NCBI GenBank assembly: GCA_964480775.1
Contig: CAYZRF010000001.1
Span: 26,101 to 58,100, forward strand
DNA length: 32,000 nucleotides
Direction: 5' to 3'
From: an uncultured Nitrososphaerota archaeon
GTDB taxonomy: Archaea > Korarchaeota > Korarchaeia > Korarchaeales > Korarchaeaceae
The position numbers were made by a program, and so were the translations under genes. Positions 8,074 through 26,620 of the stretch are shown in pieces. The number at the start of each line of letters is the position of its first letter. Position 1 is the stretch's first letter. The notes under the pieces were generated by a model. It made no database searches, was not told the origin of the DNA, and saw nothing but the letters and a program-made list of their open reading frames with translations.

Positions 8074-8109
8074 AATCAGTCGATTATGTATCTATAATCA
8101 ATCGATTAT
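8074..8109. repeat. Two 14-nt direct repeats with 22-nt periodicity in the promoter region of 7672..8058
   Basis: 'aatcagtcgattat' (8074-8087) and 'aatcaatcgattat' (8096-8109) differ at one position. The second contains the palindrome AATCGATT. They lie 16-51 nt upstream of the GTG at 8058. Confidence 0.45.
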
Positions 8110-8495
8110 ATTTATATTTTTCGTGGAACGGGCTGGAACAGAATGGAAAATCGTTATGGAACCATGATAAGCCATCTAAAATCTCTTAATTGCCTTAGTA
8201 CTCCTATAAGCCGTCTTTTTATTTTTCCATATTAGTGTACGTTTAAGCTCACACAAAGATGGATCGAAAGTACTACAGAGGAAAGCAAGGGGTGCTTTTG
8301 CGTGGATAATATTCGTCCTCTGACAAAATTATCAAAAGTTTTTCCTTTAATTTCTTAACTTATTGCTGCTTAAAAAGGAATTTAAGCGCTTATTAGCAAA
8401 TGATTGATGTTCCTTAGTGTTTCATGTCTAGGTTGGAACGAGGACCTATGTGTCCAGTCCGTAGGCACATCCATTTAGTGGTAGAAAATCAAAGG

Positions 8496-9068
8496 TCAGA
8501 GGTATCTGACCGCGCTAGCGTAGTTCATTGGAGTTATTGTGAGGGCAAACCTGACCAAATTATCCTGAAACTCATCCAGAATCTCTTCTGCCCCCTCTTG
8601 AGGTGGAGTTTCTTCCCTTTTCCCTACGGGAAATACGGTTCTGTGAATAAAGCGAAGATATCCCTTGTTGTCGTCAACCCTGATTATATGCCCTTTGTAC
8701 TTGAAAAAGTAAGCAAAGAGACCATGCCGTGAACGAAACGTCTTTATCCTCGGATATCCGAAGACATGAATCATCTTGTAAAGGAGCCTAGGGATCAGGG
8801 CAGGCCAATCGCAATTGAACCAAGGGTCATCTGAAACGCCAATATCTAGGTTTTTCTTCTTTAGTTCTTCAAAGTCCTCCTTTGTCATTATTTCAATTTC
8901 TTTTAAGAAACCCTTGAGCCATTCGGGTAAAAGATGATCGAAATTCTCAAGATAAACCTCCAACAAATAACCAGTAATGTGCTCTTCTTCCATTTCTTCA
9001 AGAATAACTTCCACCTCAGTGATCTTTCTCAAAACTATAACCCCCGATAGAACATAATTATCGAACAA
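8496..9068 (-). CDS. Hypothetical protein (190 aa or less)
   Basis: The long ORF has a composition like neighbouring genes (EEMEEEHITGYLLEVYLENF...). I recognised no motif. The start is uncertain: TTG at 9068 has no SD, and the alternatives are TTG at 9032 or ATG at 8993. Confidence 0.55.
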   Translation of the reverse strand: MFDNYVLSGVIVLRKITEVEVILEEMEEEHITGYLLEVYLENFDHLLPEWLKGFLKEIEIMTKEDFEELKKKNLDIGVSDDPWFNCDWPALIPRLLYKMIHVFGYPRIKTFRSRHGLFAYFFKYKGHIIRVDDNKGYLRFIHRTVFPVGKREETPPQEGAEEILDEFQDNLVRFALTITPMNYASAVRYL

Positions 9069-9290
9069 ATGAGAAGAGCAAGGTTAATTGTGACCTTAGA
9101 TATACCTCTTCCCATTATTCAATTAAATAATTGTATGGATAAAAATTATAGGGTTAATTTTTTAACAAGTGCATCCTCTGCACATCTTCAGTTTTGTAGT
9201 GAAAGGTAAAAAGCGGGGTAAATAGTCCTTCTCATTATCCAAAGGACTTCTCGCCCGCGCTGAAGTCTTCCTTATTGTCCGATAGCCAAC

Positions 9291-10244
9291 CTAAATTAAG
9301 ACTTCTTCTCCAGGAACCCTTGGGAATACCTGAACGTCCTTGATGTGCTTAGCTCCGACCAAGAACCTCAGAAATCTCTCAATTCCCAATCCAGCTCCTG
9401 CACTGGGCTTCAATAACCCGAGCTTTGCTATTTCTAGGAAGCTGCCATAGCTCTCTGGGGAAAGACCGTCCTTTTTAATCCTATTTACTATCCTTTCGTA
9501 CTCCCACTCCCTCTCTCCTCCTGATAGCCCCTCTCCAAAGCCCTCCGGGTATATCATGTCGTAGTTCCTGAAGTGACCTGGCCTATCTGAATCCTCTCTG
9601 TCATAGAACTCTCTTTTATGGTCTATCACCCAAAACGGATCTCTGTGCTCCCTGGAAGCTGGCAACTCCCAATCTTTTCCGTACTTTTCTTCCATTTCAT
9701 GCGTTGTGTATACCTTGAATGGTTTCTCAGGGACCTTTAGCTCTCTTCCAAACGATTCTAGGTCCTCTTTTCTCTTAGCCTTCACGGCCTTGATCGCTTC
9801 GATAACCAGGTCCTCCACAAGAGACATGATTTGTTCCATCGTTCCGTAGGCAACTTCAAAGTCCATCTGGGTGAACTCGAATAGGTGCTTTCCTGTCGAG
9901 CGTTTCTTCTCGTTCTCAAGCCTCACGTTTGGGGACATTATGTAGATCTTATCGATTCCAGTTAGCAATGCAAGCTGCTTGTGCAACAACATGCTTTGCG
10001 TGAGAACAAGCTCCTGATCACAGTATCTTATCTTCGGAACCGCTATAACCCCGCTTCCGGGATCCGGGGCCAAGGGATCTGTGAATTTCGAAGTTATAAC
10101 AGGCATTAGTTGAAGGAACCCCCTTGAGATCATGAAATCGTGGATTGTCTTCAGCATAGTGGTCTGGATCCTAATCAGCGGTAAAAAAAGGTCTGATTTC
10201 ATCCTCTCTATTACGTCCGTAACTTGAACTTGGGTTTTCATCAT
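9291..10244 (-). CDS. Class-II aaRS catalytic-core paralog without an anticodon-binding domain (archaeal asparagine synthetase A-like / AsnRS-AspRS-related)
   Basis: The 317-aa ORF has a motif-2-like block (SPNVRLENEKKRSTGKHLFEFTQMDFEV) and a motif-3-like block (GAGLGIERFLRFLVG). It has no N-terminal OB-fold domain. This architecture matches the asparagine synthetase described in Pyrococcus. Confidence 0.8.
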   Translation of the reverse strand: MMKTQVQVTDVIERMKSDLFLPLIRIQTTMLKTIHDFMISRGFLQLMPVITSKFTDPLAPDPGSGVIAVPKIRYCDQELVLTQSMLLHKQLALLTGIDKIYIMSPNVRLENEKKRSTGKHLFEFTQMDFEVAYGTMEQIMSLVEDLVIEAIKAVKAKRKEDLESFGRELKVPEKPFKVYTTHEMEEKYGKDWELPASREHRDPFWVIDHKREFYDREDSDRPGHFRNYDMIYPEGFGEGLSGGEREWEYERIVNRIKKDGLSPESYGSFLEIAKLGLLKPSAGAGLGIERFLRFLVGAKHIKDVQVFPRVPGEEVLI

Positions 10245-10616
10245 TGGTTAGAAGTGAGGAGCCGTCTTTTTAGGATTTTATCAAGAAATCTTGGGATTTT
10301 TACAAAATCGTTGGTTCATTTGGCCATTTTTTTGGGACATTTACATCTTCTTGAACTCTAATGACAAGGGGCTAACTATAATGCCTAAGTTGCTATTATC
10401 ATGTATAGTTCTTTGGTAGCTTATCTAAGACCAACTCAAATAGTATTATCGTAGTAGAACTCAAATCTTTGCTTAGGACCATATTTATCCAACACGCTCT
10501 CAAATTTACCGAAGTTAGTCTTTTGAATGCTGTTTTAGGGATCTTTTCAACGCTTGCAAAGTTTTCAGCGATACTGCTTAATAGGGCGTTGTCTTCATAG
10601 GATATATGATGAAAAA

Positions 10617-12386
10617 GTGACGAAATGGAAAATAATACTCACTCTACTTCTTAGTTTTATAATGCTGGCTACAGCTATGTTTTTCTACATTAAAGAAGAG
10701 TCCCCAAAGCCCACCGCCATCCCTACGACTACTCCCAAACCAACCAAAGAAGCTGCACCCGTACTCCCTCCTTGGGAAAGCTCTGGTCTATTTCTTCCGA
10801 TAGAAGCTCCGCCGGAAATCTTAAGGGATGCTTTCTTCAAAGCTCTAAGAAATCTAAACCTTAACGCCACTACCGAGGTTTTCACATTAGAAGTTCCACC
10901 CGTTGAGTACAGCGAAGAGGAGATTAGACAGATATTGAGTTACTACGTAAACTTCTCTCAGATAAGACCCATCGTAATTAACTGGTATCTCCCTGAAGAG
11001 GTAAGTGCTGAATACTCCAAGAGGCTTGTAAGAGTGATCTCATTTGAAAATCGCAACTTTTCCATTGTTTTTCGATGGAAAACCTTCCATCTCAATGAAT
11101 CAGTAGTTTCTTGCTTAATCAAGAGCAAAATTCCCTTGTATGTCTACAACCTCACAACATGGGTGGAAGCCAACAACCTGTCAAATTCTGAAATAAGTGA
11201 ACTGTCTTCACGGCTTAGTAAATGGGAAATCAAAACTTTCAATGCAACAACCCTATGGTCCAAGAGGCTATATGGGGAACCCATTGCTATCTCCACAAGC
11301 AACAGTAATCTGACCATCGTGACCCAAGGAGCATTCAAAGGCATTCATTATGAAGAGTTTGCGTACACCCTGGTTTACCGATTAGACAAGCACGGAAAAG
11401 TTGTTGGAAGAAAACTGTTCAACCAGACCTTTAGGGACGTAGTGATCACTGACAAGATATACTTGTTGGGAGACGATCTTTTAGCCCTTGATTTCAATGG
11501 AAGTGAGGTTTGGAAGCTGGAAGTAAATGTTGATATCCTCCTTCCATTAGAAGAAGGTGTTCTGGCCTTAAGTAAGGATCCTTTGACGATCTATTATATT
11601 TCCTCTACTGGAGAGATATTATGGCATGAAAGAGTCGCAGATTGGTGGTGGAACGGACGGCGAGAGATCCTTTATCTCAAGACTTTATCGAATAGAACAC
11701 TTGCTGTAGATATGAACGATGGAAGATTGTATCTGGCCAGAGGGAGAGTTGAAAGGATCAAGGTCAATAGGATCAGGGTTTCTACTGATACAATGCTGTC
11801 GTACTCTTATGAGAGTGTGAAGATGTCACAAGCTGGTAAAACAGTCTGGGTATGGCAAGTACCAAAGTGCAAGCGCTGTTGGGAGGCTTCTATAGCTGGA
11901 AAAGTCCTTGTGGACTCGGGTCGGGTGTTCCTTTCAACACTTGAGTACTATAATACCACAAGCGGTTGTAGCTGGAACAGACTAGTTTACTGCCTAAACC
12001 TTTCCAATGGAGAAGTACTGTGGGTCAGAGAAGTTCTTAGTAACTATCTGGATGTTACTGAACTAGTCGTCCACGACGAAAGGCTTTATGTCACAAGCGA
12101 CGGAATGCTGTATTGCTTCAGTTATGATGGAGATCTACTCTGGAACAAGAGCAATGGCCTGTTCGTTGACTTTAGCCCCCCTATTTTCTTCTACGATGAT
12201 ATCGTATGTTCTGGGGCCATCAGGTGTTTTCAAGATAATGGTAACTTCATTTGGGGGGCTAGGTGGCTTAGCGCCTTTGGATACATCAAAAAGTCTGAAG
12301 CTGGCGTCTATCTTATAGCAGATATGTGGCCTGATGCTGTTACCTACGTTTACCTGATAGAAACCAAACCAAAGGATGGATCGTAA
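10617..12386 (+). CDS. Membrane-anchored extracellular PQQ-like beta-propeller repeat protein
   Basis: The preferred GTG start at 10617 gives VTKWKIILTLLLSFIMLATAMFFYI (a TM anchor), then a Pro/Thr linker (PKPTAIPTTTPKPTKEAAP). Repeated G-x-[ILV]-[LI]-W motifs follow (GSEVWKLEV, GEILWHERV, GKTVWVWQV, GEVLWVREV, GDLLWNKS, GNFIWGARW). I count 14 N-x-S/T sequons by hand. Confidence 0.78.
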   Translation: MTKWKIILTLLLSFIMLATAMFFYIKEESPKPTAIPTTTPKPTKEAAPVLPPWESSGLFLPIEAPPEILRDAFFKALRNLNLNATTEVFTLEVPPVEYSEEEIRQILSYYVNFSQIRPIVINWYLPEEVSAEYSKRLVRVISFENRNFSIVFRWKTFHLNESVVSCLIKSKIPLYVYNLTTWVEANNLSNSEISELSSRLSKWEIKTFNATTLWSKRLYGEPIAISTSNSNLTIVTQGAFKGIHYEEFAYTLVYRLDKHGKVVGRKLFNQTFRDVVITDKIYLLGDDLLALDFNGSEVWKLEVNVDILLPLEEGVLALSKDPLTIYYISSTGEILWHERVADWWWNGRREILYLKTLSNRTLAVDMNDGRLYLARGRVERIKVNRIRVSTDTMLSYSYESVKMSQAGKTVWVWQVPKCKRCWEASIAGKVLVDSGRVFLSTLEYYNTTSGCSWNRLVYCLNLSNGEVLWVREVLSNYLDVTELVVHDERLYVTSDGMLYCFSYDGDLLWNKSNGLFVDFSPPIFFYDDIVCSGAIRCFQDNGNFIWGARWLSAFGYIKKSEAGVYLIADMWPDAVTYVYLIETKPKDGS

Positions 12387-12584: not shown

Positions 12585-13790
12585 TTATTCCACTTTCACC
12601 CCGAATTTGAACAATATTAAGCTTGCAAACAGGATAACCAACCCTATCACGAAATTGCTGTAAAGCCCAAAGGACTCAGCTACGTAAGCCGCTATTATCG
12701 GTGAGAGCGAACTTACAAGGTTCCCTGAGAGGAAGAACAGGGAGTAGCTCAAACCCCTGCGCTTAGTTGAGGAGAGTTTTGCAATTAATGCTGAGTTGGC
12801 TGGCATTCCTGCGATGTTAAAGAACCCATACGCAAGGTAAAGAGCCACGAATATCAGGGAATGCGGGACAAGAACTGCTATGGTGAAGAAGGTGTAAGCA
12901 GTTGCGTACGCCGTCAATATCCACCTCTTCTCCCCTAACTTCGAGGCCAGAAATCCGCCTAAAGGAGTGCCAACGATCCCCATCAAAGGGACGGATCCTA
13001 TTACTATTGCCGCTAGGTTTTCGCTGAGCTCAAGGGAGTCCACGAGGTAGATGGACATGAAGGTGCTTATGAGGCCTTGGCCGAGCCATCTTATTCCAAT
13101 GAATGCCAGAAAAATTACCAAGCTTATTGATATTAGATGAGCTCCTTCTACAGCTGTTGGTTCCTCCTTTTCGCTGTCCTCTGAGGTTGATCTTTCCCTT
13201 AAGTACTCCTCCTTTAGGAAGATTATGGAAATCAACCCTAAGATAATAGGTATAAGCCAGAAGAGGTAAACTTGCCTCCATCCGAAGGCTAAAGTGCCCA
13301 TTAGGATGCCAACGCTTATTGGACCTATCGACATGCCTATAGTTCCACCGACTGCGTGAATTCCCATGGCTTTGGGGACGTCTTCAGGCGGAAAGAGCTT
13401 GCTGTTAAGGCTGTAAGAGGGAGGATGGTAGATCGTTGAGTTTAGCGAAATCAAGCAGACGGCCAGTATTATCATGACCGCGCTATGTGCTTGGCTTGCT
13501 ATCGCAACCGCTATCGTTAAAACGCTCATGCTCATCAACATCATCTTCTTTGCGCCCATCTTATCTGAAAGTAAGCCTACAGGAATGGCCAGCAATGTAG
13601 AAAGTAGGGAAGGTAGGGAGGCTATTACTCCCATCTGCTTTAACGTTAGGTTGAGCTCTTCTGGTTTTCTCCAAATTGGGAAAAGAACAGAGTGAATTCT
13701 CTGGGTGCAGTGGGTCAAGAAGTGAGTCAGCACGAGTACAAACATGCTGAGGCTTAAGATTGATGCTCTTTTCTGCGACCTATCGCCCAT
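12585..13790 (-). CDS. MFS transporter (1 of 4)
   Basis: The 401-aa hydrophobic multi-span protein has a motif-A-like loop (GLLSDKMGAKKMM) and a second-half equivalent (GGFLASKLGEKRW). Confidence 0.88.
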   Translation of the reverse strand: MGDRSQKRASILSLSMFVLVLTHFLTHCTQRIHSVLFPIWRKPEELNLTLKQMGVIASLPSLLSTLLAIPVGLLSDKMGAKKMMLMSMSVLTIAVAIASQAHSAVMIILAVCLISLNSTIYHPPSYSLNSKLFPPEDVPKAMGIHAVGGTIGMSIGPISVGILMGTLAFGWRQVYLFWLIPIILGLISIIFLKEEYLRERSTSEDSEKEEPTAVEGAHLISISLVIFLAFIGIRWLGQGLISTFMSIYLVDSLELSENLAAIVIGSVPLMGIVGTPLGGFLASKLGEKRWILTAYATAYTFFTIAVLVPHSLIFVALYLAYGFFNIAGMPANSALIAKLSSTKRRGLSYSLFFLSGNLVSSLSPIIAAYVAESFGLYSNFVIGLVILFASLILFKFGVKVE

Positions 13791-13889: not shown

Positions 13890-14636
13890 TTATTGTTCTA
13901 TAAAGGCCCTTATTTCGCTGATTATGTGACTAATCAGGGCTTCAACAACAAGCTTACCCTTTTCAACAGATGCGAGAGTGGCATCGCCAAATACGCCAGA
14001 TGAAGAGTAGGCCCCAGCATCCATCCTGTTAGGATCCCTCGTTAGGCCATGTCCTCCCCTTGGATGGTAGTCCTTAACAGCTTTGCTCATGTCTACAACC
14101 TCTGGCCTTATGTAAAGCATCATCGAAGTTTCAATCTCATCTGCGTGGGTTCCACCTTCCTGCTCTGAGATCTCCTCCTCGACGCTGCTGCAAGCCCTCA
14201 ATATGTCGGTATACCTCATCTCTATCCCCAGCTCCCTTAGCTCCTCAGCGGCAAGCTTGAGTCCCTTGATCGTGGAAACCCCTGTGTTTAGCACGTAGAA
14301 CATCTTTACTCCATAACGGCTCATGGATATGCAGATGTCCTTCAACATCTCCTTGAAGGTCTCGAGCTTAAGGGAAACAGATCCGGGATACTCGAGAAAT
14401 GAGGGATAGTAGCCGTACTGGATCGTGGGCATAAGCACGACAGGTACTTCGTTCGCTACTCTCTCAGCCAAGTACTCAGCAAGGATCCAATCCGTGTTAA
14501 GGGGCATGTGAGGACCGTGCTCCTTCGTCCTAGCTCCCAGAGGAATAAGAACAACTTCATACTCCTTGAGAACCTCCTCAGCTTCAATCCAGGTTAAATT
14601 CTCTAATTTTACGCCTTTTCCCCTTTTATTTGGCAT
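13890..14636 (-). CDS. Creatininase-family metal-dependent amidohydrolase
   Basis: The family signature is LIPLGARTKEHGPHMPLNTDWILAEY, plus the later GTHADEIETS. The substrate cannot be inferred. The family includes creatininase, mycothiol-related amidases and the archaeal riboflavin-pathway deformylase ArfB. Confidence 0.85.
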   Translation of the reverse strand: MPNKRGKGVKLENLTWIEAEEVLKEYEVVLIPLGARTKEHGPHMPLNTDWILAEYLAERVANEVPVVLMPTIQYGYYPSFLEYPGSVSLKLETFKEMLKDICISMSRYGVKMFYVLNTGVSTIKGLKLAAEELRELGIEMRYTDILRACSSVEEEISEQEGGTHADEIETSMMLYIRPEVVDMSKAVKDYHPRGGHGLTRDPNRMDAGAYSSSGVFGDATLASVEKGKLVVEALISHIISEIRAFIEQ

Positions 14637-14778: not shown

Positions 14779-15144
14779 CTAAGGGGAGATGTACATCAGC
14801 TTGTCCTCAGGCAAATCGTATTCGTACTTAAGGCGTGCCCTCATTACCGTCTCAGCAAAACTTCCTGAAAAAGAAACTCTTGTCCCCGTTAAATCGCAGA
14901 GCTTATTTATTATTGAGCACAATACTACCTTTGACCCATCTTCTCCAAAAAGGAGTTTCAAAGAATCAGCTAGTGCATCAGGGGATCTTATAAGCTCTTT
15001 TGGGAGCATCCCCTTGATCTCGCACATTAGGGAGATTATAGCATCGTGAGCAACGTCGCCGAATATATTCTTTAGAGTTGATTCTACCGCCTCGACGTAT
15101 AGCTCGTCAAATCCCCTCCTTCTGCTCCTAGGAGGTCCGTGCAC
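14779..15144 (-). CDS. Small conserved hypothetical protein, paralog of 7672..8058
   Basis: The 121-aa ORF starts at GTG in the same 8-nt context (ATGAAGTG) as the paralog. Shared blocks include NIFGD, LLFGEDG and RARLKYEYDLPED. Confidence 0.7.
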   Translation of the reverse strand: MHGPPRSRRRGFDELYVEAVESTLKNIFGDVAHDAIISLMCEIKGMLPKELIRSPDALADSLKLLFGEDGSKVVLCSIINKLCDLTGTRVSFSGSFAETVMRARLKYEYDLPEDKLMYISP

Positions 15145-15160
15145 TTCATATGTTTATCGT

Positions 15161-15191
15161 CCTTGTGGAATAAATAGTTAACGTTACAAGG
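15161..15191 (-). promoter_or_regulatory. Inverted repeat bracketing a TATA-like box upstream of 14779..15144
   Basis: CCTTGT (15161-15166) and ACAAGG (15186-15191) flank 'ggaataaatagttaacgtt' (minus strand: aacgttaactatttattcc). The TATA-like core lies about 27 nt upstream of the GTG at 15144, suggesting a near-leaderless arrangement. Confidence 0.35.
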
Positions 15192-15387
15192 CGTTTCATT
15201 CTCATTCAATTTCGTTCTAAACCTTCCCAAATTGAAATTTTTCTAATATCACAGAACTAAATATGGAAAGCATCTTGGTTTCCTATTGCTTTTCTATTAA
15301 GAGAAAAACTGGATAAGGAAAAGAAGTCTACTTGTATGTCTTAAGCTTGGCTGCTGTAAAAATTCCATGGACTAAAAGCTCAAGGGC

Positions 15388-17028
15388 TCATTTAACCATT
15401 AAGAATCTTCCGACAACAAGCCTATCCGATGCTACGGAGACTATCTTCGTTTTGAAAGTTTCTCCAACCCTTAGGTTTTTTGGGACTCCCTTAACGAGGA
15501 CAACGGGCCCTTCTTTTACTGGATAAGCTACTCTATAGCTTCTATGCCTTCCTGGTGCTAAAACGACGTCTAAGGCCTTCCCAATGAGCTCTTTTTTCCT
15601 CGCAAGGTTAAAGCTTCTTGCAGCTCTTTCGATCATCCTTGAGGCAGGATCTCTGGATGAGGATGGTCCTTCAGGCATGTTCTCAAAAGCGGAAAAAGGA
15701 AGGGGCTTAAACCTATATACGGTAACCTTCTCCACTCCGATGAGGTACAATTTCCTTATCAAGCTAGCTGTTTTCCTCGCTGTTTCTATGGTCTGACCAG
15801 GAAGGCCGTGAATGAAGTATGCATATATCCGCAATCCAGCCTTTATCGCAGACTTAATGGCTTCCACATCTTCAGATGGAGGAGATGGTCTCCCTAATAG
15901 TACTGCATGTCCATCGTCCCCTGTCTCAATTCCTACGTGTATTACAGCCCCAGGCAAATAATTTGCAAGCAGAGATATCGTCTTATTAGTCAGAAGGGAT
16001 GCCTTGGCGTTCTCAACCCCAATGTAGACCTCTTCTCTCGTTACCTCAGGTATTGACGTAACGCTGGAGAGAAGCTCTTCAATGGCCTCTATGTTAGGTT
16101 TAGGTTCTGAGGGATGTGTTGGTGGGTTAGCAATTTCCTCCCTTCTGTATTCGAGGAAGTCTGCTCCGCTTAGAGTTATCCTCTTCACCCCTCTCTTAAT
16201 TAACCCCTTTATCTCCTCAACTAGCATGCTTAAGTCCCTTGACTTTGGATATCCATAAACAGCGGGAATTGAACAATATCCACATCCTGGAGGGATTTTT
16301 TGGGGACAAAGAATTCTTGAAGATAAATTAGTGCCAAAACAAGCCCCACAAGCTCTGCATTTCTGCTGATCAGCCAAGATCAAAGCCCTATTGAAGTTTG
16401 AACACCCTCTCACAACCTCAACGTAGACCCTTGAAGCTCTATAGTGTGGAATCGAGGTGTAGTTGCATATAGCACGAAAAGAAGGCTTGTACTTGTTAAA
16501 CTCCTCCTTCTTCAGTATTTCGTGACGTGTTATGTGCGTTTTACCCTTATCGACAAGGACGAGATTGGGAACAGTTTTCAACTCGTCTGCTCCTTCTTTT
16601 ACCTCTAATTTGACCTTTTCAAGTCCTAGATTAAGCAGCGAATCTACTGCAACCTCTCCTTCTCCGAAAACGCCTAAATTATATCCTAAATAAGCTATAA
16701 CGGATGGATCACAGGTTATCGGCCCTCCTAATACCTTAAAGGAAGATTTGAAGGCTCTTGAAATCTTCCTCGCTGCAACGAGGTCCATGGTCATCGCGCT
16801 AACAAAAATGATGTCGTGCTTCGAGTACTTGGATGGCCTCCTCAGAACGTCCTCTACCCTTGCAATCCTGTAGGAAATGCCTTCTTTCTCAAATATCCCT
16901 GCTATAGTTCTAGGCCCTGCCCCTATTACATCAAGCGTGGATCTCCTGGTTCCTTCTCCCGCCGCAAGAGCGTCAACGAGAAGGACCTCACCACTCACCT
17001 CAAGAACCTTCCCTACCGGATTTTCCAT
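15388..17028 (-). CDS. Radical SAM enzyme with an N-terminal Rossmann-like (B12-binding/MTTase-N-like) domain and a C-terminal TRAM-like domain
   Basis: The 546-aa ORF has an N-terminal block (HDIIFVSAMTMDL...KVLGGPITC) and core blocks (VEVVRGCS...GCGYCSIP, ITLSGADFLEY, VIHVGIETGDD, FIHGLPGQT). The C-terminus (ALDVVLAPG...VLVKGVPKNLRVGETFKTKIVSVASDRLVVG) has the shape of a TRAM beta-barrel. The Cys motif is non-canonical (see findings). Confidence 0.82.
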   Translation of the reverse strand: MENPVGKVLEVSGEVLLVDALAAGEGTRRSTLDVIGAGPRTIAGIFEKEGISYRIARVEDVLRRPSKYSKHDIIFVSAMTMDLVAARKISRAFKSSFKVLGGPITCDPSVIAYLGYNLGVFGEGEVAVDSLLNLGLEKVKLEVKEGADELKTVPNLVLVDKGKTHITRHEILKKEEFNKYKPSFRAICNYTSIPHYRASRVYVEVVRGCSNFNRALILADQQKCRACGACFGTNLSSRILCPQKIPPGCGYCSIPAVYGYPKSRDLSMLVEEIKGLIKRGVKRITLSGADFLEYRREEIANPPTHPSEPKPNIEAIEELLSSVTSIPEVTREEVYIGVENAKASLLTNKTISLLANYLPGAVIHVGIETGDDGHAVLLGRPSPPSEDVEAIKSAIKAGLRIYAYFIHGLPGQTIETARKTASLIRKLYLIGVEKVTVYRFKPLPFSAFENMPEGPSSSRDPASRMIERAARSFNLARKKELIGKALDVVLAPGRHRSYRVAYPVKEGPVVLVKGVPKNLRVGETFKTKIVSVASDRLVVGRFLMVK

Positions 17029-17894
17029 AGGATCCCAGATTCAGATGCTATTGGCTCAACCTCTCCCTCGTCCAACATGTAAGAAAGCATTGATCTTATT
17101 GTAACGCTGGAAATTATTAGGGAGGAAACGCTTATGTTTGACCCAGCCTCTAGGAGTATGCGAGCAGTTAGGCTTTCGGCGGTAAGAGGCTCCCTATGAA
17201 GTATCCTCTTTGCCTTCTTTGGGAGGCTTTCTAAAGCGCTAATGTTTGCCTTAAGGATTTTTTCAGCCCTGTTACCTTCACAAACTGGTCCGTGAGAAGG
17301 AACTATCTTCCTGTAGTCCCTTGCATGATTAAGTAGGAACCTCATAGTCTCCAATGACGTTTTGTAATCTATGAAATAGGGGATTGCAACCGTTCTAAGC
17401 AACTTGTCGCCGAAGAAAGCGTCCCCGGCGTAAAGAAGTCCGTCTTCGGTTAAGTAGCCAACGTGTCCGAATGAGTGGCCGTGTAAGGGCACCGACTCAA
17501 AGGGCCCGAGTTTGCAGGGCGGGTCAAAGCCCTCATCTACCATCACAGAGAGGGCTGGAGCAACCTTTGTTAGCTTCTCGCTTCCTTTAGCTCCGAAAGA
17601 GAGGGCCTTCCTGATTCCAACACTTCTCGCTGAGCAGGACTCAAGGGCTGGACCCATTACAACTGCTCCTGTAAGTTCTACAAGCTTCGGTATTGCGGCC
17701 AGGTGATCTGAGTGGCTGTGGGTTATCAGTACTCGTTTCCTTTTCTCGCTATCCAAACTTTTTGCGAGCTCTTCCCCTCTTTTGGGATGCGCTCCTGGGT
17801 CAACTATCCAGATCTCGCCTTCATAGGATATCACGAGCGTGCTTGGAGAACCAGGGGCCAGCAGTGCACCCTTTCCTAACTTCCTGAATTCCAT
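17013..17894 (-). CDS. MBL-fold metallo-hydrolase with a C-terminal helical/winged-helix-like extension
   Basis: The HxHxDH motif is present (ITHSHSDHLAA), followed by PLHGHSFGHVGY, YAGDAFF and VPSHGP. The preferred start is the ATG at 17894 (MEFRKLG), preceded by GTGATC. The alternative GTG at 17954 would overlap the upstream gene by 11 nt. The 3' end overlaps the radical SAM start by 16 nt. Confidence 0.87.
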   Translation of the reverse strand: MEFRKLGKGALLAPGSPSTLVISYEGEIWIVDPGAHPKRGEELAKSLDSEKRKRVLITHSHSDHLAAIPKLVELTGAVVMGPALESCSARSVGIRKALSFGAKGSEKLTKVAPALSVMVDEGFDPPCKLGPFESVPLHGHSFGHVGYLTEDGLLYAGDAFFGDKLLRTVAIPYFIDYKTSLETMRFLLNHARDYRKIVPSHGPVCEGNRAEKILKANISALESLPKKAKRILHREPLTAESLTARILLEAGSNISVSSLIISSVTIRSMLSYMLDEGEVEPIASESGILWKIR

Positions 17895-17943
17895 CCAGAT
17901 CACTGGAACTAAAGCTGTCGAGTGAAAATAAAAAGAGAAGAAA

Positions 17944-18195
17944 TCAACCCCCACCTACTATTGGAATGAATGAAACGACATCTTCCTCCTTAAGTACAGC
18001 AGAAAGACCACCGAACTCATCCGCAGGTTTACCATTAATCAATATAATTATTGAAAGCCTCTCATCCCTGTAAATAAGCCTCCTTGCCTCATCAGGAAGC
18101 TTCTCAATGAACTCTTTGAGGGTTAAGGACGTTTCAACTTCCATCTCCTTCCCTAAGATCTCTGTTAGTCTTCCAATGAACTTGGCCTTGGGCAT
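17944..18195 (-). CDS. MoaD/ThiS-like beta-grasp (ubiquitin-like, SAMP-like) small protein ending in Gly-Gly-Gly
   Basis: The 83 aa from the ATG at 18195 are preceded by AGGTGA with 5 nt spacing. The length and pattern match MoaD-type carriers (MPKAKFIGRLTEILGKEMEVE...ILINGKP...LKEEDVVSFIPIVGGG-stop). Confidence 0.75.
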   Translation of the reverse strand: MPKAKFIGRLTEILGKEMEVETSLTLKEFIEKLPDEARRLIYRDERLSIIILINGKPADEFGGLSAVLKEEDVVSFIPIVGGG

Positions 18196-18204
18196 GGAGT
18201 TCAC

Positions 18205-19512
18205 CTAACTTCCAGCCCTCTCCTCTTCTTTTGGTTCCTTGACATACCAGATAAATACCATGAGGGTGATAAATCCTATCAAGGAGCTTATGAAGAATGG
18301 TAAGGCAGCTCCAGGGACCAAAATTCCTCCAATCTTGAACGACTTGGGGGCATAGAGCTGGTAAATGTGCCCTCCAATCAGGGGACCTACCACGGCTCCT
18401 ATGTTAAATGCTGCCTGCACTGTCCCGAAGATCTTGCCCCTAACCTCTTTGGGCACTATGTCTGCCTGAAGGGCCCTAAAAGAAGGCATGGAGAAGTTGA
18501 ATGCCACCGACCTCAGACTTGTTAGCACTCCAAAACCCTTCAAGCTCCTCGTGAAAGGTATAAGCATGGTCGTTAACCTGGAGAAGAAGGTGCCAGATAT
18601 TATGGTGGGCCGCCTTCCTATGGAGTCAGAAATCCTACCTGCTGGATAGGTGACAGCTAAGCCGATGAGCCCTGCTATTGTGAAGACGCTTGCAACCGCA
18701 GCAGGATCTGCCTTTATGAATTCGATTATGAATATGCTGAAAAGGGGAGCTGTGAGACCCATTCCAACCCCATTGGCAATTGCCATGGCATATATGGCGT
18801 TGATGCTTTTTCTGGTCTCTTCTGGAATCTCTATCTCCGTTTTTACGTTCTTATTTTCTTTAGGCATAGGTTTAGGGCTTCTAACCCCGCTTTCCTCCAG
18901 CAATAAGGTGGCTGGGATAGCTAAAGATGAAAAAAGTGCAAGTCCGAAAAAGGGGAACTTGAGTGCCTTTCCTACCTCTTTAATTCCGAGGAAAATGACG
19001 CCAAATTTGTAGATTGCAGCTCCGACGGCTGGACCCGATGTCATCGCCAGGTTATTTGCTATCATGTAGACCGCCATTGCTCTTCCTCTATGACTTGGTT
19101 CAATTGTATCCATTAGTAGGGCTTCAGCGACGGGCCAGACCATTGCTGACGCTATTCCTTGGAATCCCCTTATTAGATAGAGGTGAATCGTGGAGGAAGA
19201 TACGATGTACGCAAAGGCCATCAAAACGTAAAAAATGGTTCCGACCAGAATGATTTTCTTCCTCCCTACTCTGTCGCTTAGGGTTCCGAAGTATCTAGCC
19301 ATGATGGCTCTCGTTAACATGAAAGCCGATGTCAAGGCAGTAAACTCCAGTGCATAACTTGATGCCCCAGAAATCTTCTCGAAGGTTTCAGGAAGCCTAT
19401 CAAGCCTTCCACCAAGGTATAGTATATAGTATGGTAGAACGGCCGATATAGATCCAAAGCCAAGGCTGACCATAAAACCAAGCCAAGAGAGGAGTGCTAG
19501 GTTCTTCTTCAT
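18205..19512 (-). CDS. MFS transporter (2 of 4), first gene of the Ubl/MBL/radical-SAM operon
   Basis: Motif A is GTLSDRVGRKKIIL, with the second-half motif GRISDSIGRRPTI, in a multi-span hydrophobic protein. The preferred start is the ATG at 19512 (MKKNLALLSWLGF). The ORF track extends to 19593. Confidence 0.88.
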   Translation of the reverse strand: MKKNLALLSWLGFMVSLGFGSISAVLPYYILYLGGRLDRLPETFEKISGASSYALEFTALTSAFMLTRAIMARYFGTLSDRVGRKKIILVGTIFYVLMAFAYIVSSSTIHLYLIRGFQGIASAMVWPVAEALLMDTIEPSHRGRAMAVYMIANNLAMTSGPAVGAAIYKFGVIFLGIKEVGKALKFPFFGLALFSSLAIPATLLLEESGVRSPKPMPKENKNVKTEIEIPEETRKSINAIYAMAIANGVGMGLTAPLFSIFIIEFIKADPAAVASVFTIAGLIGLAVTYPAGRISDSIGRRPTIISGTFFSRLTTMLIPFTRSLKGFGVLTSLRSVAFNFSMPSFRALQADIVPKEVRGKIFGTVQAAFNIGAVVGPLIGGHIYQLYAPKSFKIGGILVPGAALPFFISSLIGFITLMVFIWYVKEPKEEERAGS

Positions 19513-19906
19513 TTTTTGACCTTCTTTAATCTCCTCGACATGTATAAAAGAATTAATCATCCACTTACAACCCGATTTTCGAGGAATGGACAAAATCTCT
19601 TATCTAAAACGAGAGAATTCGTAGATAGAAGGAATTATTTATTCTTAGACAAACCCTTGAGAAGCTGGAATATGAGTGTTTGACTAATTGGTTTCTTTCT
19701 CAAGCAGAAAGCCTAAAAGAGGTAATTAATATAAAATGCGAAATTCTTACCTTAAAAATAAATCAAAACCCTCTTTCTTCATTATCTAAGATCGAGAATA
19801 AAAGAGAATAAAAATTTCTGAAACCTTGGTAATTAAAAGTTATCATCCAAAATAAAACATCCAACCAAGGACTCGGCAAGATCTAAAGCCCCTACGGTGC
19901 TGGAGT

Positions 19907-19936
19907 TAGATTTTGGGGATTTATCTCTAAAATCTA
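19907..19936. repeat. 8-bp inverted repeat inside a 500-bp AT-rich intergenic region
   Basis: TAGATTTT (19907-19914) and AAAATCTA (19929-19936) are separated by a 14-nt spacer. ATCTAA at 19881-19886 can alternatively pair with TTAGAT at 19906-19911. Confidence 0.3.
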
Positions 19937-20095
19937 GTAATAGAAATAGGATTAAGTTATATAGTTTACCTATTTCATGTACTTCATCTCATTTCACAAA
20001 ATTTATCCTTTAATCCCAGCGATTTGATAGAAGAACTTATAAATTAACCGGAATTCGCCCTCTTGACCCTCTAAAACCAGAGGAGGCTATCTGAG

Positions 20096-20557
20096 GTGGA
20101 GAGACTGACCAAAGACATCTCATGCATTGTGGTATATGGTCTGCAGAAGGTACTGTGGGAGACTTTGGGTGAAGGATCTCTCGCCTTCACATCGCTGATT
20201 GGTGAGGAGGTGCTTAAGGTTTTGGAGAATGAGGCAGGCCTGAAAGTTGAGGGAGATGGAGCCCAAGATTTGCTGAATAATATTGGACAGATCTTCGTTG
20301 AAAAAATAGGGCTCGCAAAGAGTTTTTCTTCGAAAATAGACGGAGACACGGTCAACATGGAAGTTGAAGGATGTTACTTCTTCAACGTGGAGGAAATGCT
20401 TGCCAAGAACAACATAAAGCCATTCGTATGTCCCTTCATGAATGCTTCTACATACGCAATGAGGAGGAACCTTAACGTGAGGTCAAAGATAAACGATGTA
20501 ACCATAGACGTGCCGTCGAAGAAGTGTACGATGCAGTTCCAAATGCTACGGAAGTGA
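20096..20557 (+). CDS. V4R-like domain protein (COG1719-type 'hydrocarbon-binding' protein)
   Basis: The GTG start is preceded by GAGGAGG about 9 nt upstream. The 153-aa ORF has the C-terminal pattern VNMEVEGCYFF...KPFVCPFMNASTYAM, resembling the conserved Cys-containing core of archaeal V4R proteins. Its position next to a Roadblock gene is typical for that family. The assignment is by eye. Confidence 0.55.
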   Translation: MERLTKDISCIVVYGLQKVLWETLGEGSLAFTSLIGEEVLKVLENEAGLKVEGDGAQDLLNNIGQIFVEKIGLAKSFSSKIDGDTVNMEVEGCYFFNVEEMLAKNNIKPFVCPFMNASTYAMRRNLNVRSKINDVTIDVPSKKCTMQFQMLRK

Positions 20558-20570
20558 ATGGTGGCGCGGT

Positions 20571-20939
20571 ATGGTACTAACAGGAATTGACATGAATCAA
20601 AAACTTGCCTCTTTCGTGAGTGAGGTTCCAGGACTAGAAGTTGCAGCGCTAGTATCATTTGATGGTCTCATCGTCGCCTCATCCTTTCCAAAAAAAGATG
20701 CTAGAGAGGATAGAATTGCGGCCATGTCTTCTGCTCTGTTAAGCATAGCTTCTGTAATTGCAGACGAGCTACGGAGGGGAAAATTTGAAAGGGCAATGAT
20801 AGAGGGAACAAGAGGCTCTGTGATCTTGCTTCCTGCAGGAGATGACTTTTTACTTGTGGCAGTTTGTTCTGCGGAAGCAAGGCTGGGGATGTTGCTTTAC
20901 GAACTTGAAAGAATGGTAAACTCCATAGCTCCCAAGTAG
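20571..20939 (+). CDS. Roadblock/LC7 (MglB-like) domain protein
   Basis: The 122-aa ORF shows LASFVSEVPGLEVAALVSFDGLIVASS...AAMSSALLSIASVIADEL...GSVILLPAGDDFLLVAVCSAEARLGML, the canonical Roadblock/LC7 pattern. Confidence 0.85.
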   Translation: MVLTGIDMNQKLASFVSEVPGLEVAALVSFDGLIVASSFPKKDAREDRIAAMSSALLSIASVIADELRRGKFERAMIEGTRGSVILLPAGDDFLLVAVCSAEARLGMLLYELERMVNSIAPK

Positions 20940-21362: not shown

Positions 21363-22595
21363 TTATGGGATAGAAGAGTTGTTATTTGCATCATCTCTTC
21401 TTTCTCCAAAAGTGGGGCTTTTACCCTTCATTTTGAAGGCCATTAAAATCAGAGCGCCCATGCTAATTCCTCCAAAACTCCAAACCAGAGTCGGGGAGAA
21501 GTTATAGACTAAGCCTGCCAGAGGGCTTCCAACCGCATTAAAGGCGCTGAAGGCCATGGATCCAATTGCTTCAACCCTTCCTCTAATTTCTGGGGGAGTT
21601 ACATCGCTCATCATTGCGAACAACGCAGCGCTCGGGGTAAAAGCACCCATTAGACCTATGGACACAGGGATAACCCACTGCCTCGATGGAGCTGTTACCA
21701 ACAACATATAACCCAAAAACCTGGTAAATCCCCCAAGCATAATGGTCTGATTTCTCCCCCATCTGTCAGCAAGGTGGCCTGAGACTGGAGTGGTTATCAA
21801 GGTTACAACATTTGCAAGAGACGTCGCCAAGCCCCAGATCGAGGGATCCATTCCAACATCTTTTACGGCGAAGATCTGCAGGAAGGGGTTGATCGTCATT
21901 ACAGTACCAAAGGAGATTACTCTAAGGAGCACGACCTTTCCCGCTTCCTTCTTTGTGAGCCAGGGCATTATCTCCGCATAGGCTCCAAGCATTCCAGAAA
22001 GGCTAAGTCTTTCTATAGATCTTTCTCTCGTTTCAATAAGCTTTAACCTTGAAATTCCTGCGATTAAGTAGAGGAAAAAGGAGATTACATAGAGTTCTCT
22101 TGTACCCTTAAGTAATTCGTTTTTAGATACGATCCAAGCGCCTAAAGTGGGTCCAAAAATGCTTCCTATCCACCAACTCGCGTCACAGTAAGATCTATAC
22201 CTGCCAGCAACGTTGACGGGTAGGCTATCCGATAGTATGGCCATTATTGCTGGATCTATTATCATTGAAAGTCCTTTACCAGCACTTAGAGCTAATATAT
22301 GGATCCAGCTTCTTGATAGGGAGAAGAAAAGACTCACCAGAGCCATGGAAAATGTTGCAGGTACTATTATGGCCTTTCTTCCATATCTATCAGCCAAATA
22401 TCCCCCAAATGGTTTAATGAAAAACGAAGTTACCGCATTTGCCGCTGCTATAAGACCTACCTGTGCTGAACTAGCTCCCAGGGATACCGCATACAAGTAG
22501 AAGTACGTACCTACTCCAGTCTCGGCCAAACCCATCAGGAGCCAATTTGATCCAATTATGATGACGTTTCTTTTTATCAGCTTTCTTTGGTACAC
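21363..22595 (-). CDS. MFS transporter (3 of 4)
   Basis: The GTG start is preceded by AGGAGTG. Motif A is GGYLADRYGRKAIIV, with the second-half motif GHLADRWGRNQTIM. Confidence 0.88.
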   Translation of the reverse strand: MYQRKLIKRNVIIIGSNWLLMGLAETGVGTYFYLYAVSLGASSAQVGLIAAANAVTSFFIKPFGGYLADRYGRKAIIVPATFSMALVSLFFSLSRSWIHILALSAGKGLSMIIDPAIMAILSDSLPVNVAGRYRSYCDASWWIGSIFGPTLGAWIVSKNELLKGTRELYVISFFLYLIAGISRLKLIETRERSIERLSLSGMLGAYAEIMPWLTKKEAGKVVLLRVISFGTVMTINPFLQIFAVKDVGMDPSIWGLATSLANVVTLITTPVSGHLADRWGRNQTIMLGGFTRFLGYMLLVTAPSRQWVIPVSIGLMGAFTPSAALFAMMSDVTPPEIRGRVEAIGSMAFSAFNAVGSPLAGLVYNFSPTLVWSFGGISMGALILMAFKMKGKSPTFGERRDDANNNSSIP

Positions 22596-24269: not shown

Positions 24270-25457
24270 CTATTTTTCCCTTTGATAAACTACTTTTCCA
24301 TCAATCAAAACCGAGTTCACCCTAGTAGTGGGCTCGAACGGATCTCCTTCGAAGATGACAAGGTCTGCGTCTTTTCCAACCTCTATACTTCCAACTCTGT
24401 CCGAAATGCCGATCACCTCTGCCGGGTTTATCGTTATGGACTTTATCGCTTCCTCCTCCTTCATACCCTCTCTTATAGCAAGGCCTGCTAATACACGCAG
24501 GCGCTGCAAGGGTAGAGTTGGGTGGTCTGTGGTCAGGCAAACCTTTACACCTGCATCAGAGAGTAACGCGGGCGTTTTTGGAGTAAGGTTCTTGAGTTCA
24601 ACTCCTCTTCTTGAGTAAAGGATTGGACCAATAACCGCGGGTATCCCCTTTGATGCTATCTCCGAGGCGATCAAATGACCCTCAAAAGCGTGTTCTAAAA
24701 CCAGATCAAAGCCAAACTCCTCAGCAAGCCTGATCGCAGTCCTAATGTCCTCCACTCTGTTGGCGTGAACTCTTGCGGGGATCTCTCTCCTAAGGATCAT
24801 GGCCATGGCTTCAAGCTTCAAGTCAACTTCAAAATCGGGGTCAGAGCTACTTTCTTTCTTCTTGAGATAGGCTTGCGTCTTGTAAAGAATCTCTCTCAAC
24901 AAAGCTGCAATCCCCATCCTCGTCGTCGGCATCTTCTTCTTTTGCGCCCAAGTCCTCTTTGGATGTTCTCCAAGGGCCATTTTGATTCCAGCCGGGTTCT
25001 TCAACATCCTACTCTCAAAACTACTTCCTCCGGTCTTCACGGCAAAGCCCTGACCTGCTATGACGTTTGCTACTTCTCCAGTCGCGAATCCAATCTCGCT
25101 ACCCGGTTCTATTAACACAGTCGTTACTCCTCCCCCAACAGCTTCTCTAAAACCTGGATCAAGGGGGTTCACGCCGTCGATGGCCCTTAACTGTGGAGTT
25201 ACGGGATCTGTGGTCTCAACGGCATCAGCGGTCCTTCCTCCTTCCTCAAGAGGGAGTATTCCTAAGTGTGTGTGGGCATCTATCAATCCAGGCGTTATTA
25301 TGCTTCCTTCTGCATCGATAACCTCTGCCCCTTCTGGAACCCTGACATCTGACCCTACACCTACTATCTTATTCCCTTTTATGAGAACAGTCCCTCTTCT
25401 TATTCTCTCTCCAGTTCCAGTCCAGATCTCTCCTCCTTTGATCGCAATCACCTTCAT
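24270..25457 (-). CDS. Metal-dependent amidohydrolase (COG1228/imidazolonepropionase-related group), copy A
   Basis: It carries PGLIDAHTHLG (HxH), GIKMALG, ARVHA, LEHA, TTDHP and GSIEVGKDADLVIF. The ATG at 25457 follows AGGAGGTG and shares one base with the upstream stop (TGATG). Confidence 0.9.
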   Translation of the reverse strand: MKVIAIKGGEIWTGTGERIRRGTVLIKGNKIVGVGSDVRVPEGAEVIDAEGSIITPGLIDAHTHLGILPLEEGGRTADAVETTDPVTPQLRAIDGVNPLDPGFREAVGGGVTTVLIEPGSEIGFATGEVANVIAGQGFAVKTGGSSFESRMLKNPAGIKMALGEHPKRTWAQKKKMPTTRMGIAALLREILYKTQAYLKKKESSSDPDFEVDLKLEAMAMILRREIPARVHANRVEDIRTAIRLAEEFGFDLVLEHAFEGHLIASEIASKGIPAVIGPILYSRRGVELKNLTPKTPALLSDAGVKVCLTTDHPTLPLQRLRVLAGLAIREGMKEEEAIKSITINPAEVIGISDRVGSIEVGKDADLVIFEGDPFEPTTRVNSVLIDGKVVYQREK

Positions 25458-26620
25458 CACACCTCCTGCTCGCTTCTATCGTATGCGATCTGACCGTTCA
25501 CAAGAACCTTCTCGACCTTGGACTTGATCCTCAAAGGGTGGCCTGAGAAAATTACGATATCTGCGTCCTTTCCAGGCTCAATGCTGCCAACCTGGTCAGC
25601 TACTCCAGCTATCTCAGCGGCGTTTATTGTAATGGCTTTCAAAGCCTCCTCTTCTGGCATTCCCTCGCCAGCAGCGACAGCTGCCATAAGGCTAAGGTAT
25701 TGTATTGGGATGACGGGATGATCCGTCATCAATGCGACCTTTATGCCTGCCTTCGCGAGGATAGCTGGAGCTCTTGGATCAAGGTTCTTGAAGACGATGC
25801 TTCTTCTAGCCCTCATGAGTGGGCCGAAAACAACAGGAACTTTATTCTTGAGCAACTCATCAACTATGAAATGAGCTTCCCTTGCGTGCTCCACGGTGAA
25901 GTCGAACCCGAACTCCTTGGCAACCCTTATTATTGAGAGCATATCTCCAGCCCTTTGAACATGGATTCTTGCGGGGATCTCCCTCTTCAGCAACTTTACT
26001 AGGACCTCCATCTTGAGATCCATCTCGCACTTCTCTCCTCTTTCAATTTTCTTCATGTAATTCCTTGCCTCTGTGAGTGCTTGCCTAAGCACCCCAACGG
26101 TTCCCATGCTTGTAACTGGATAAGGGTATTTTCCCTGTGAAGGCCTTTCCATCTTCCTTCCAAATGCCATCTTAACTCCAGCAGGATCTCTTAGCACCAT
26201 TTCCTCTAGACTTGAACCAAAAGTCTTAATCACGATGCTCTGTCCTCCTATCACGTTCGCACTCCCGGGACCAGTGATTACGGTAGTTACTCCTCCAGCA
26301 ATAGCATCCTTGAAAGCCTGATCTGTGGGATCAATGGCATCTATAGCTCTAAGCTGGGGAGTAACGGGGTCTGTAATCTCGTTTGCGTCGGCATACTCCC
26401 AATCTAATCCTTCAGGGACTATCCCAACGTGAGAGTGGGCATCAATAAGTCCTGGCATAACAACCTTGCCGCTTGCGTCAACAACCTCTGCTTCTGGAGG
26501 AGTTTCGAAATCCTTTCCAACCTTTTCTATCTTTCCATCTCTTATCAAAATCTTACCTTGTTTTATCGTCTGACCGGCCATCGTGAAGATCAAACCGTTG
26601 CAAATCGCCAGAGTTCTCAT
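25457..26620 (-). CDS. Metal-dependent amidohydrolase, copy B (tandem paralog)
   Basis: It carries PGLIDAHSHVG, GVKMAFG, ARIHV, VEHA, MTDHP and GSIEPGKDADIVIF. It shares the identical block TDPVTPQLRAID with copy A. Confidence 0.9.
   Translation of the reverse strand: MRTLAICNGLIFTMAGQTIKQGKILIRDGKIEKVGKDFETPPEAEVVDASGKVVMPGLIDAHSHVGIVPEGLDWEYADANEITDPVTPQLRAIDAIDPTDQAFKDAIAGGVTTVITGPGSANVIGGQSIVIKTFGSSLEEMVLRDPAGVKMAFGRKMERPSQGKYPYPVTSMGTVGVLRQALTEARNYMKKIERGEKCEMDLKMEVLVKLLKREIPARIHVQRAGDMLSIIRVAKEFGFDFTVEHAREAHFIVDELLKNKVPVVFGPLMRARRSIVFKNLDPRAPAILAKAGIKVALMTDHPVIPIQYLSLMAAVAAGEGMPEEEALKAITINAAEIAGVADQVGSIEPGKDADIVIFSGHPLRIKSKVEKVLVNGQIAYDRSEQEV

Follow-up and report, generated by a model that had tools for sequence, protein, structure and literature searches.

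A four-gene cluster in a Korarchaeota-like genome as a probable clade-specific juxtaposition, and the archaeal radical SAM family to which its last gene belongs

The defining feature of methylthiotransferases (MTTases) is that their N-terminal domain carries an auxiliary [4Fe-4S] cluster, and four clades of these enzymes have been described (PMC10702137). Another enzyme of the same superfamily, RaSEA (radical SAM enzyme for archaeosine formation), is a partner of ArcS and has been described for Euryarchaea (PMC11298593). Genes for MoaD-type proteins adjoining those of aldehyde:ferredoxin oxidoreductase (AOR) are also described (PMC1779556; PMC2948915), and the gene neighbours of archaeal MoaD/ThiS-like small proteins (Ubl) include GloB-type genes for metallo-beta-lactamase-fold hydrolases (MBL; PMC2948915). 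In a 32,000-nt stretch of DNA (the window) from an uncultured archaeon of the Korarchaeaceae (contig CAYZRF010000001.1, positions 26,101–58,100), four minus-strand genes for a major facilitator superfamily (MFS) transporter, a Ubl, an MBL and a radical S-adenosylmethionine (SAM) enzyme (rSAM) follow one another. The original prediction read them as a self-contained module for sulfur insertion or small-molecule modification. From the comparisons below, we hold with moderate confidence that the cluster is a clade-specific and probably co-transcribed juxtaposition, in which a housekeeping rSAM gene landed downstream of a clade-specific trio of MFS, Ubl and MBL genes, and not a dedicated pathway.

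A genome scan with the rSAM protein gave 238 matching loci, of which 80, all with matches of at least 40% identity and from 80 different assemblies, were compared. These and the other homologous loci used here (numbered L001 and so on) are mostly contigs of metagenome-assembled genomes (MAGs), with genes called as open reading frames (ORFs). The 80 loci belong to TACK and Asgard archaea, spanning Korarchaeia-type Thermoproteota, Bathyarchaeia, Desulfurococcales, Pyrodictiaceae, Methanomethylicota, Culexarchaeia and the Asgard Odin-, Jord-, Baldr- and Atabeyarchaeia, and the rSAM gene appears to be single-copy among them. When their ORFs were searched with the window MBL, Ubl and MFS, the order MFS-Ubl-MBL-rSAM was found in only three loci (L001–L003), whose rSAM proteins are 74–76% identical to that of the window. 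The remaining 77 have no Ubl, MBL or MFS neighbour. ThiS-like ORFs were found only in L001, L002, L003 and L086 by a scan for small GG-terminal ORFs and by the Ubl profile at E<=10. The four-gene order is also kept in L086, with gaps of 12, 40 and 19 nt, and in the metagenome loci L089–L093 (for L091, see below); the window, L001–L003, L086 and L089–L093 make up the clade with the association.

Gene order within this clade is not restricted to the four genes. Synteny between the window and L001/L086 also takes in ProRS, a D-Ser-dehydratase-like gene, w26746, hyp121 and an aminoacyl-tRNA synthetase-like gene, and in the three closest genomes it spans roughly the 8-kb flanks examined on each side. 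Since the flanks are syntenic too, the conserved order of the cluster carries no extra weight and is indistinguishable from background synteny. An association beyond this background was not found, being absent from the 77 rSAM loci, five MBL loci and two Ubl-outgroup loci. Conservation of the gene order outside this genome is thus effectively refuted, as it is kept only in a shallow clade with syntenic flanks, and the proposal of a self-contained sulfur-insertion module is not supported.

Outside the clade, the rSAM gene stands mostly in housekeeping islands with many genes for transcription, translation and tRNA processing. Its recurrent neighbours there are GlyRS (23 loci), RpoH (21), TgtA (20), DUF359 (20), TFB (18), SUI1 (17) and EndA (15). 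The rSAM of the cluster would be a local orthologue, apparently present in one copy, in a housekeeping family that extends over TACK and Asgard archaea, and it would act independently of the genes upstream of it.

Some of these neighbourhoods have a recurrent composition of their own. In the Korarchaeota-type loci L005–L009, L011, L017 and L024 (at about 4000–12000), the gene order is conserved: the gene for a geranylgeranyl reductase is followed by those for a basic protein of 80 aa, TgtA, DUF359 (encoded on the other strand), rSAM and lastly TFB, and in some of them an F420-0:gamma-glutamyl-ligase-like gene lies between TgtA and DUF359. In 18 loci, a protein of ~100–112 aa with a weak Pfam match to Molydop_binding (a beta-barrel) is encoded beside rSAM or GlyRS, for example at 7696–7983 of L029, 11729–12004 of L033 and 10025–10363 of L068; in L029 its gene is 12 nt upstream of rSAM on the same strand. 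The TGT paralogue found upstream in 20 loci had raised the idea that rSAM is RaSEA. This identity was rejected on three grounds: the neighbour scores as TgtA (431 bits, cut-off 350) and not as ArcS (147 bits, cut-off 440), the opposite-strand DUF359 gene usually intervenes between TgtA and rSAM, and RaSEA is described as a euryarchaeal partner of ArcS.

A few other loci were set aside. In L091 (2077–3716), the MBL is without residues ~99–189 and no rSAM gene lies downstream; the MBL is followed by frameshifted fragments of an ADP-forming acyl-CoA synthetase-like gene, as judged by eye from the translations, and the contig is probably of poor quality. Because this next gene is also frameshifted, L091 was given little weight as a natural break-up of the cluster. 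Weak matches to the MBL profile near rSAM in L023 and L080 (21–30 bits) are generic superfamily members and not orthologues, and the weak match in L094 (38% over 63 residues) is spurious, as it falls within an unrelated gene on a contig that appears to be bacterial.

In the window, the maximal minus-strand ORFs on the ORF list are 15388–17028 (rSAM), 17013–17954 (MBL), 17944–18204 (Ubl) and 18205–19593 (MFS), where the original prediction had placed them, and the three junctions read as it described. Its family calls were right as well, with Pfam scores of 175 bits for MFS_1, 44.7 for ThiS, 64 for Lactamase_B and 57 for Radical_SAM. The observation of four nearly adjoining genes was confirmed, and comparison with homologues refined their start codons. 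The MFS gene stops with TAG at 18205–18207. Of the two Ubl starts that had been offered, ATG 18195 agrees with the homologues and GTG 18204 was dropped; the gap read directly at this junction is 9 nt, and the AGGTGA ahead of the Ubl ATG overlaps the MFS stop codon. The Ubl stop codon occupies 17944–17946, after a C-terminus that reads VGGG. For MBL, ATG 17894, which gives the N-terminus MEFRKLGKG common to homologues, was taken and the alternative GTG 17954 was not, so that Ubl and MBL are separated by 49 nt and do not overlap. The MBL stop TAG at 17013–17015 falls inside the rSAM ORF when this is read from ATG 17028, an overlap of 16 nt, and a start at GTG 16998 would give a 14-nt gap instead. 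These two rSAM starts are equally possible: ATG 17028 is the call on record; residues 1–9 of this version have a predicted local distance difference test score (pLDDT) below 50, the start of most homologues falls near residue 13, and in close relatives rSAM starts 19 nt past the MBL stop. In all clade members the MFS-Ubl gap is 9–12 nt and the Ubl-MBL gap is 40–49 nt.

Short gaps are not a peculiarity of the cluster. They are below 50 nt in 7 of the 17 same-strand neighbour pairs of the window, including distances of -4, -4, +1 and +13 outside the cluster. As tight packing is so common here, three tight junctions in a row suggest co-transcription, yet they are unexceptional. On the 5′ side of MFS lies an AT-rich divergent intergenic region (19513–20095, no strand assigned; 583 nt, GC ~0.39), presumably holding the promoter of the cluster, and on the 3′ side of rSAM lies a spacer (15145–15387, no strand assigned; 243 nt) whose coding strand has runs of TTTTT and which may plausibly be a region of archaeal transcription termination. 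Both spacers plausibly fit a single transcription unit, and this Korarchaeota-like genome probably transcribes the four genes together. A tRNA scan and an Rfam scan of the window gave no matches.

The rSAM gene (15388–17028, minus strand; alternative start GTG 16998) encodes a protein of 546 aa (P0001) with a Pfam Radical_SAM match of 3e-15, against a cut-off of 29.5 bits. It has 653 homologues, and the best 120 listed are 40–100% identical over at least 91% of the query; among the matches listed, only generic names are found. No NCBIfam model reaches its cut-off on this protein, and an exact-sequence look-up of it returned no record. The AlphaFold2 (AF2) model (pLDDT 92.3) consists of a Rossmann-type N-domain, a radical SAM core and a TRAM-like barrel. 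Its top Foldseek matches are RNA-bound MiaB (PDB 7mjv, E 4.5e-26, TMt 0.77), MtaB, MgmA and RimO; PDB 7mjv, 9a6d and 4jc0 are the best matches for the MTTases, and the alignments to MiaB, MtaB and RimO cover the full length. MiaB, MtaB and RimO have in common with the window rSAM an alpha/beta N-domain, a radical SAM core and a C-terminal TRAM-like barrel, so that the predicted MTTase architecture stands as far as the order of domains is concerned.

It does not stand for the auxiliary cluster. While MTTases carry a three-Cys site for this cluster in the N-terminal domain, the window rSAM has none, and its N-domain (residues ~14–150; 16579–16989, minus strand) is of a Rossmann-type, cobalamin-binding-like kind without a conserved cysteine. 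No column of the N-domain has 30% Cys or more in the family, and all seven conserved cysteines lie within residues 209–252. The rSAM thus resembles MTTases in fold but fails membership in their family, because the cysteines of the N-terminal auxiliary cluster are missing, and it fits none of the four described clades. The models for MTTases agree with this, TIGR00089 scoring 59.6 bits against 251, and the MiaB, MtaB and RimO equivalogs 30–36 bits against cut-offs above 314.

The relative with a solved structure that is closest by sequence is MgmA (QCMT; PDB 9ccb), the B12-dependent radical SAM glutamine C-methyltransferase of MCR, with an E-value of 1.2e-13 when the single sequence is searched and of 5e-25 with the profile. 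The alignments take in the radical SAM core as well as the N-terminal Rossmann domain, GEGE motif included, and the family profile of rSAM aligns to the N-domain of MgmA. However, MgmA has a contiguous CX3CX2C motif without a Cys-rich insert, its alignment to the rSAM profile ends at position 418, before the TRAM-like region, and the rSAM family is found mainly in non-methanogenic lineages. Class B models stay below their cut-offs on rSAM (TIGR04013, 89.5 bits against 251; TIGR04014, 83.9 against 360), and membership in the MgmA family was rejected on these cut-offs together with the taxonomy. The B12-binding model PF02310 is precomputed in most homologues listed, and it matches the window protein at 5e-5 (23.5 bits), below its cut-off of 32.1. 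In family-profile alignments the protein is divided between two kinds of relative: its N-domain and core align best to MgmA, and the alignments of its core and C-terminal barrel with RimO and MiaB extend over the TRAM regions of these enzymes. This barrel is five-stranded (residues ~483–546; 15391–15582, minus strand), with DSSP strands within 485–545. The TIGR00089, RimO and MiaB alignments all extend through the TRAM regions. The Pfam TRAM model is above its cut-off on the C-terminus of one family member (23.8 against 21) and below it on that of the window protein.

A further difference from MTTases is the radical SAM cysteine motif itself (residues 209–252; 16273–16404, minus strand), in which CX3CX2C is split by an insert of 36 residues, a feature noted for the window and for all of L001–L080. 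It reads G-C209-SNF, the insert, and G-C249-GY-C252, and the insert carries C224-x2-C227-x2-C230...C241-P, a ferredoxin-like CX2CX2C...CP motif. Six of these cysteines (C209, C224, C227, C241, C249 and C252) do not vary in 32 diverse TACK and Asgard members, and the seventh, C230, is 97% conserved. C209 is aligned to the first Cys, and C249 and C252 to the second and third, of the CX3CX2C motif of MgmA. The site of the SAM cluster is thus non-canonical and, by sequence only, can be read as C209-x39-C249-x2-C252 or as C241-x7-C249-x2-C252. We infer the former split site, accompanied by a second, ferredoxin-like cluster in the insert. From this anatomy, the enzyme would bind two Fe-S centres, a SAM-cleaving [4Fe-4S] cluster on C209, C249 and C252 and another on C224, C227, C230 and C241.

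The Ubl gene (17944–18195, minus strand) encodes a MoaD/ThiS-family protein of 83 aa with a Gly-Gly-Gly end, matching Pfam ThiS at 2e-11 against a cut-off of 22.5 bits. That the small ORF would model as a beta-grasp, as the original prediction expected, was borne out by its AF2 model (pLDDT 90), for which Foldseek found Urm1, SAMP1, MoaD and CysO at TM-scores of 0.65–0.79. The two C-terminal glycines, G82 and G83, are invariant in 19 relatives. Its best NCBIfam match is moaD_arch, and it is below the cut-off of every curated subfamily (moaD_arch 37.4 against 49.5, Urm1-like 32.7 against 70, SAMP1 23.5 against 60, ThiS 18.9 against 37.45). It is a divergent member of its family: a word-indexed homologue search gave four relatives, and an exhaustive search of 1.84 billion proteins gave 16 representatives at E<=1e-3. 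The metagenome scan for Ubl was seeded with a narrow Ubl alignment, and the context of Ubl outside the clade is that of one outgroup type (L087/L088). In this closest outgroup (P0139 type, 57–61% identical), the gene is 1 nt downstream of an AOR gene (L088 2499–4635; L087 3–546), and no MFS, MBL or rSAM gene was found near it in either locus. Because the nearest outgroup is AOR-adjacent, the comparison suggests that the window Ubl descends from an AOR-linked MoaD group. With AOR-associated MoaD and the archaeal SAMP1/Urm1-like modifiers it has the beta-grasp fold and the C-terminal Gly-Gly in common, but unlike the AOR-associated genes it sits between MFS and MBL genes with no AOR, MoaE, MoeB or molybdenum-cofactor gene adjoining. 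No match to an E1 (MoeB, ThiF or UbaA), a JAMM protein or MoaE was found among the ORFs of at least 110 aa in the 32-kb window. The Ubl would be a MoaD-branch beta-grasp protein with an activatable Gly-Gly end; its E1 would be encoded in another part of the genome, and its role would be that of a sulfur carrier or of a SAMP-like modifier.

The MBL gene (17013–17894, minus strand) encodes a protein of 293 aa, in which the binuclear metal site is intact and the C-terminus is extended by ~80 aa, and which matches Pfam Lactamase_B at 2.1e-17. The ligands of glyoxalase II-type enzymes, HxHxDH followed by His, Asp and His, are all present, and none of the seven residues concerned (H59, H61, D63, H64, H140, D158 and H201) varies in 10 family members. 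In sequence searches of the PDB its nearest solved relatives are glyoxalase II, PA1813 and ST1585. It shares the ligand set with GloB-type hydrolases and thioesterases (PA1813, YcbL, PqsE and ST1585), which give its best matches in those searches, and differs from them by the additional C-terminal domain of ~80 residues and by belonging to a narrow archaeal family. It is below the cut-off of the GloB equivalog (TIGR03413, 40.5 bits against 200.8), and the family is small, with 13 clusters, mostly Korarchaeota-like plus other Thermoproteota archaea. The protein is predicted to be an active binuclear metallo-hydrolase of the glyoxalase-II/thioesterase type. Its homologues with 48, 45, 36 and 31% identity are encoded by solitary genes in unrelated contexts. 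In L003 (Kor4 MAG) the MBL gene (1521–2389) has at least four frameshifts, and the MFS, Ubl and rSAM genes there are each in a single frame; this MBL is either a pseudogene or the product of a local assembly error. In Sulfolobus tengchongensis (L085 4867–6819), a distant MBL homologue (31%) is divergent from a different rSAM gene (Radical_SAM plus DUF3463), an arrangement seen once.

The MFS gene (18205–19512, minus strand) encodes a transporter of the DHA1/multidrug-efflux type, 435 aa long from ATG 19512 (Pfam MFS_1 2.8e-51). This start, which gives MKKNLALLSWL, the same N-terminus as in L001, is the most likely one, and not TTG 19593 of the maximal ORF. The protein resembles efflux-type DHA families and attains the cut-off of no NCBIfam equivalog. 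The 32-kb window is rich in MFS genes, with four of them (12585–13790, 18205–19593, 21363–22595 and 30454–31650), and that of the cluster would be one among many efflux-type transporters of this genome. The MFS gene at 12585–13790 lies downstream of a gene for a creatininase-family amidohydrolase (13890–14636).

In a dedicated module of the four genes, as first proposed, a thiocarboxylated Ubl would feed sulfur to an MTTase-like rSAM, MBL would hydrolyse or recycle a thioester or persulfide intermediate, and MFS would move the substrate or product. The tight spacing and the order kept in all clade members seen agree with it, as do the GG end and the beta-grasp fold of Ubl and the similarity of the rSAM fold to MiaB, MtaB and RimO; as rSAM is without the auxiliary-cluster cysteines of MTTases, an external sulfur donor is conceivable. 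This is nevertheless quite improbable, given that 77 of the 80 genomes with the rSAM family have none of the three partners beside it, that conservation in the clade is no greater than the background, that the MBL of L003 is frameshifted beside three intact genes, that MBL and Ubl relatives outside the clade are in unrelated contexts and that no E1 is encoded nearby in the window. The TRAM-like domain and the RNA-bound MiaB as best match also point to a macromolecular substrate and not to a transported small molecule. Very improbable is a wider version, in which the Ubl thiocarboxylate passes sulfur to an MTTase-like rSAM whose auxiliary cluster is now ferredoxin-like and inside the motif, MBL recycles the carrier, and the TACK/Asgard family is a new sulfur-inserting class of RNA-modifying enzymes with Ubl donors in trans. 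Or the MFS-Ubl-MBL trio alone may be a functional unit, with rSAM as a co-transcribed passenger, forming a clade-specific offshoot of MoaD-type sulfur or pterin chemistry; for example, a compound derived from a thiocarboxylate or persulfide would be handled or exported, MBL being a thioesterase or a persulfide dioxygenase. The uniform spacing of the trio throughout the clade and the GloB-type MBL genes listed among archaeal Ubl neighbours (PMC2948915) speak for such a unit, and relocation of a Ubl with an AOR-linked outgroup beside new partners may mark a new role. We consider it rather unlikely, since the trio is confined to the same shallow clade, MBL homologues elsewhere are solitary, the L003 copy is frameshifted and MFS genes are common. 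Several points weigh against the juxtaposition that we prefer. The four genes are contiguous and tightly spaced in every intact contig of the clade, at an rSAM identity of ~74–76%, whereas immediately upstream of MFS the window has other genes than L001/L086; this speaks weakly for a block that is maintained as a unit. A sulfur-carrier-type protein beside an MTTase-like enzyme without the usual auxiliary-cluster domain is mechanistically suggestive, and Ubl may act in trans despite the lack of linkage elsewhere. Moreover, the survey of contexts covered 80 of 238 matching loci, and a second, housekeeping copy of rSAM in the clade genomes, which were examined as single contigs, is possible.

What rSAM acts on is a separate matter. 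The fold, the TRAM-like domain and the neighbourhood lead us to expect an RNA substrate, and the enzyme would modify RNA, or less likely a ribosomal or other protein, by means of its TRAM-like barrel and MiaB-like cleft. Here too there is a counterpoint, in that RimO and MgmA, also close relatives of rSAM, modify proteins. A possible but doubtful alternative is that the target of rSAM is a protein and not RNA, just as MgmA modifies MCR and RimO modifies uS12, and that rSAM belongs to the cobalamin-dependent methyltransferases or is some other class-B radical SAM enzyme; this would be compatible with a juxtaposition of the four genes. The profile similarity to MgmA, B12-type N-domain included, and the PF02310 domain of most homologues listed are consistent with it, and a TRAM domain is also present in RimO, a protein-modifying MTTase (PMC10702137). 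In contrast, the best full-length structural match is RNA-bound MiaB, the PF02310 score of the window protein is below the cut-off, TIGR04013 and TIGR04014 are far from reached, and the lineages are mostly non-methanogens, so that MCR cannot be the general substrate.

The remainder of the window shows further details of its compact organization. An unannotated protein of 121 aa encoded downstream of rSAM (14779–15144), with no Pfam or NCBIfam match, is kept downstream of the cluster in L001 and L002, and it has a paralogue in the window (7672–8058); in L001 and L002 a single ORF is matched by both proteins, with E ~1e-17 for the paralogue. TldD/PmbA paralogues are encoded 1 nt apart at 802–3589, and the genes for two amidohydrolase paralogues at 24270–26620 overlap by 4 nt. 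At 20096–20939, the gene for an unannotated 153-aa protein precedes a Roadblock/LC7 gene by 13 nt, the two being divergent from the cluster.

As an operon, the cluster matters little, being probably a clade-specific juxtaposition of genes from four well-known superfamilies. It rather serves as a caution for compact archaeal genomes, where function is not to be read from tight spacing alone. The part worth keeping is the rSAM family, which extends across Korarchaeia, Bathyarchaeia, Desulfurococcales, Methanomethylicia and several Asgard lineages and has no curated model or informative name. It brings together an MgmA-like B12-type N-domain, a MiaB/RimO-like core and a TRAM-like barrel, and has an invariant Cys-rich insert inside the cluster motif. 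Should the enzyme act on tRNA or rRNA, it would explain one archaeal modification that lacks a known enzyme, and it would also represent a new way to place an auxiliary cluster next to the radical SAM cluster.

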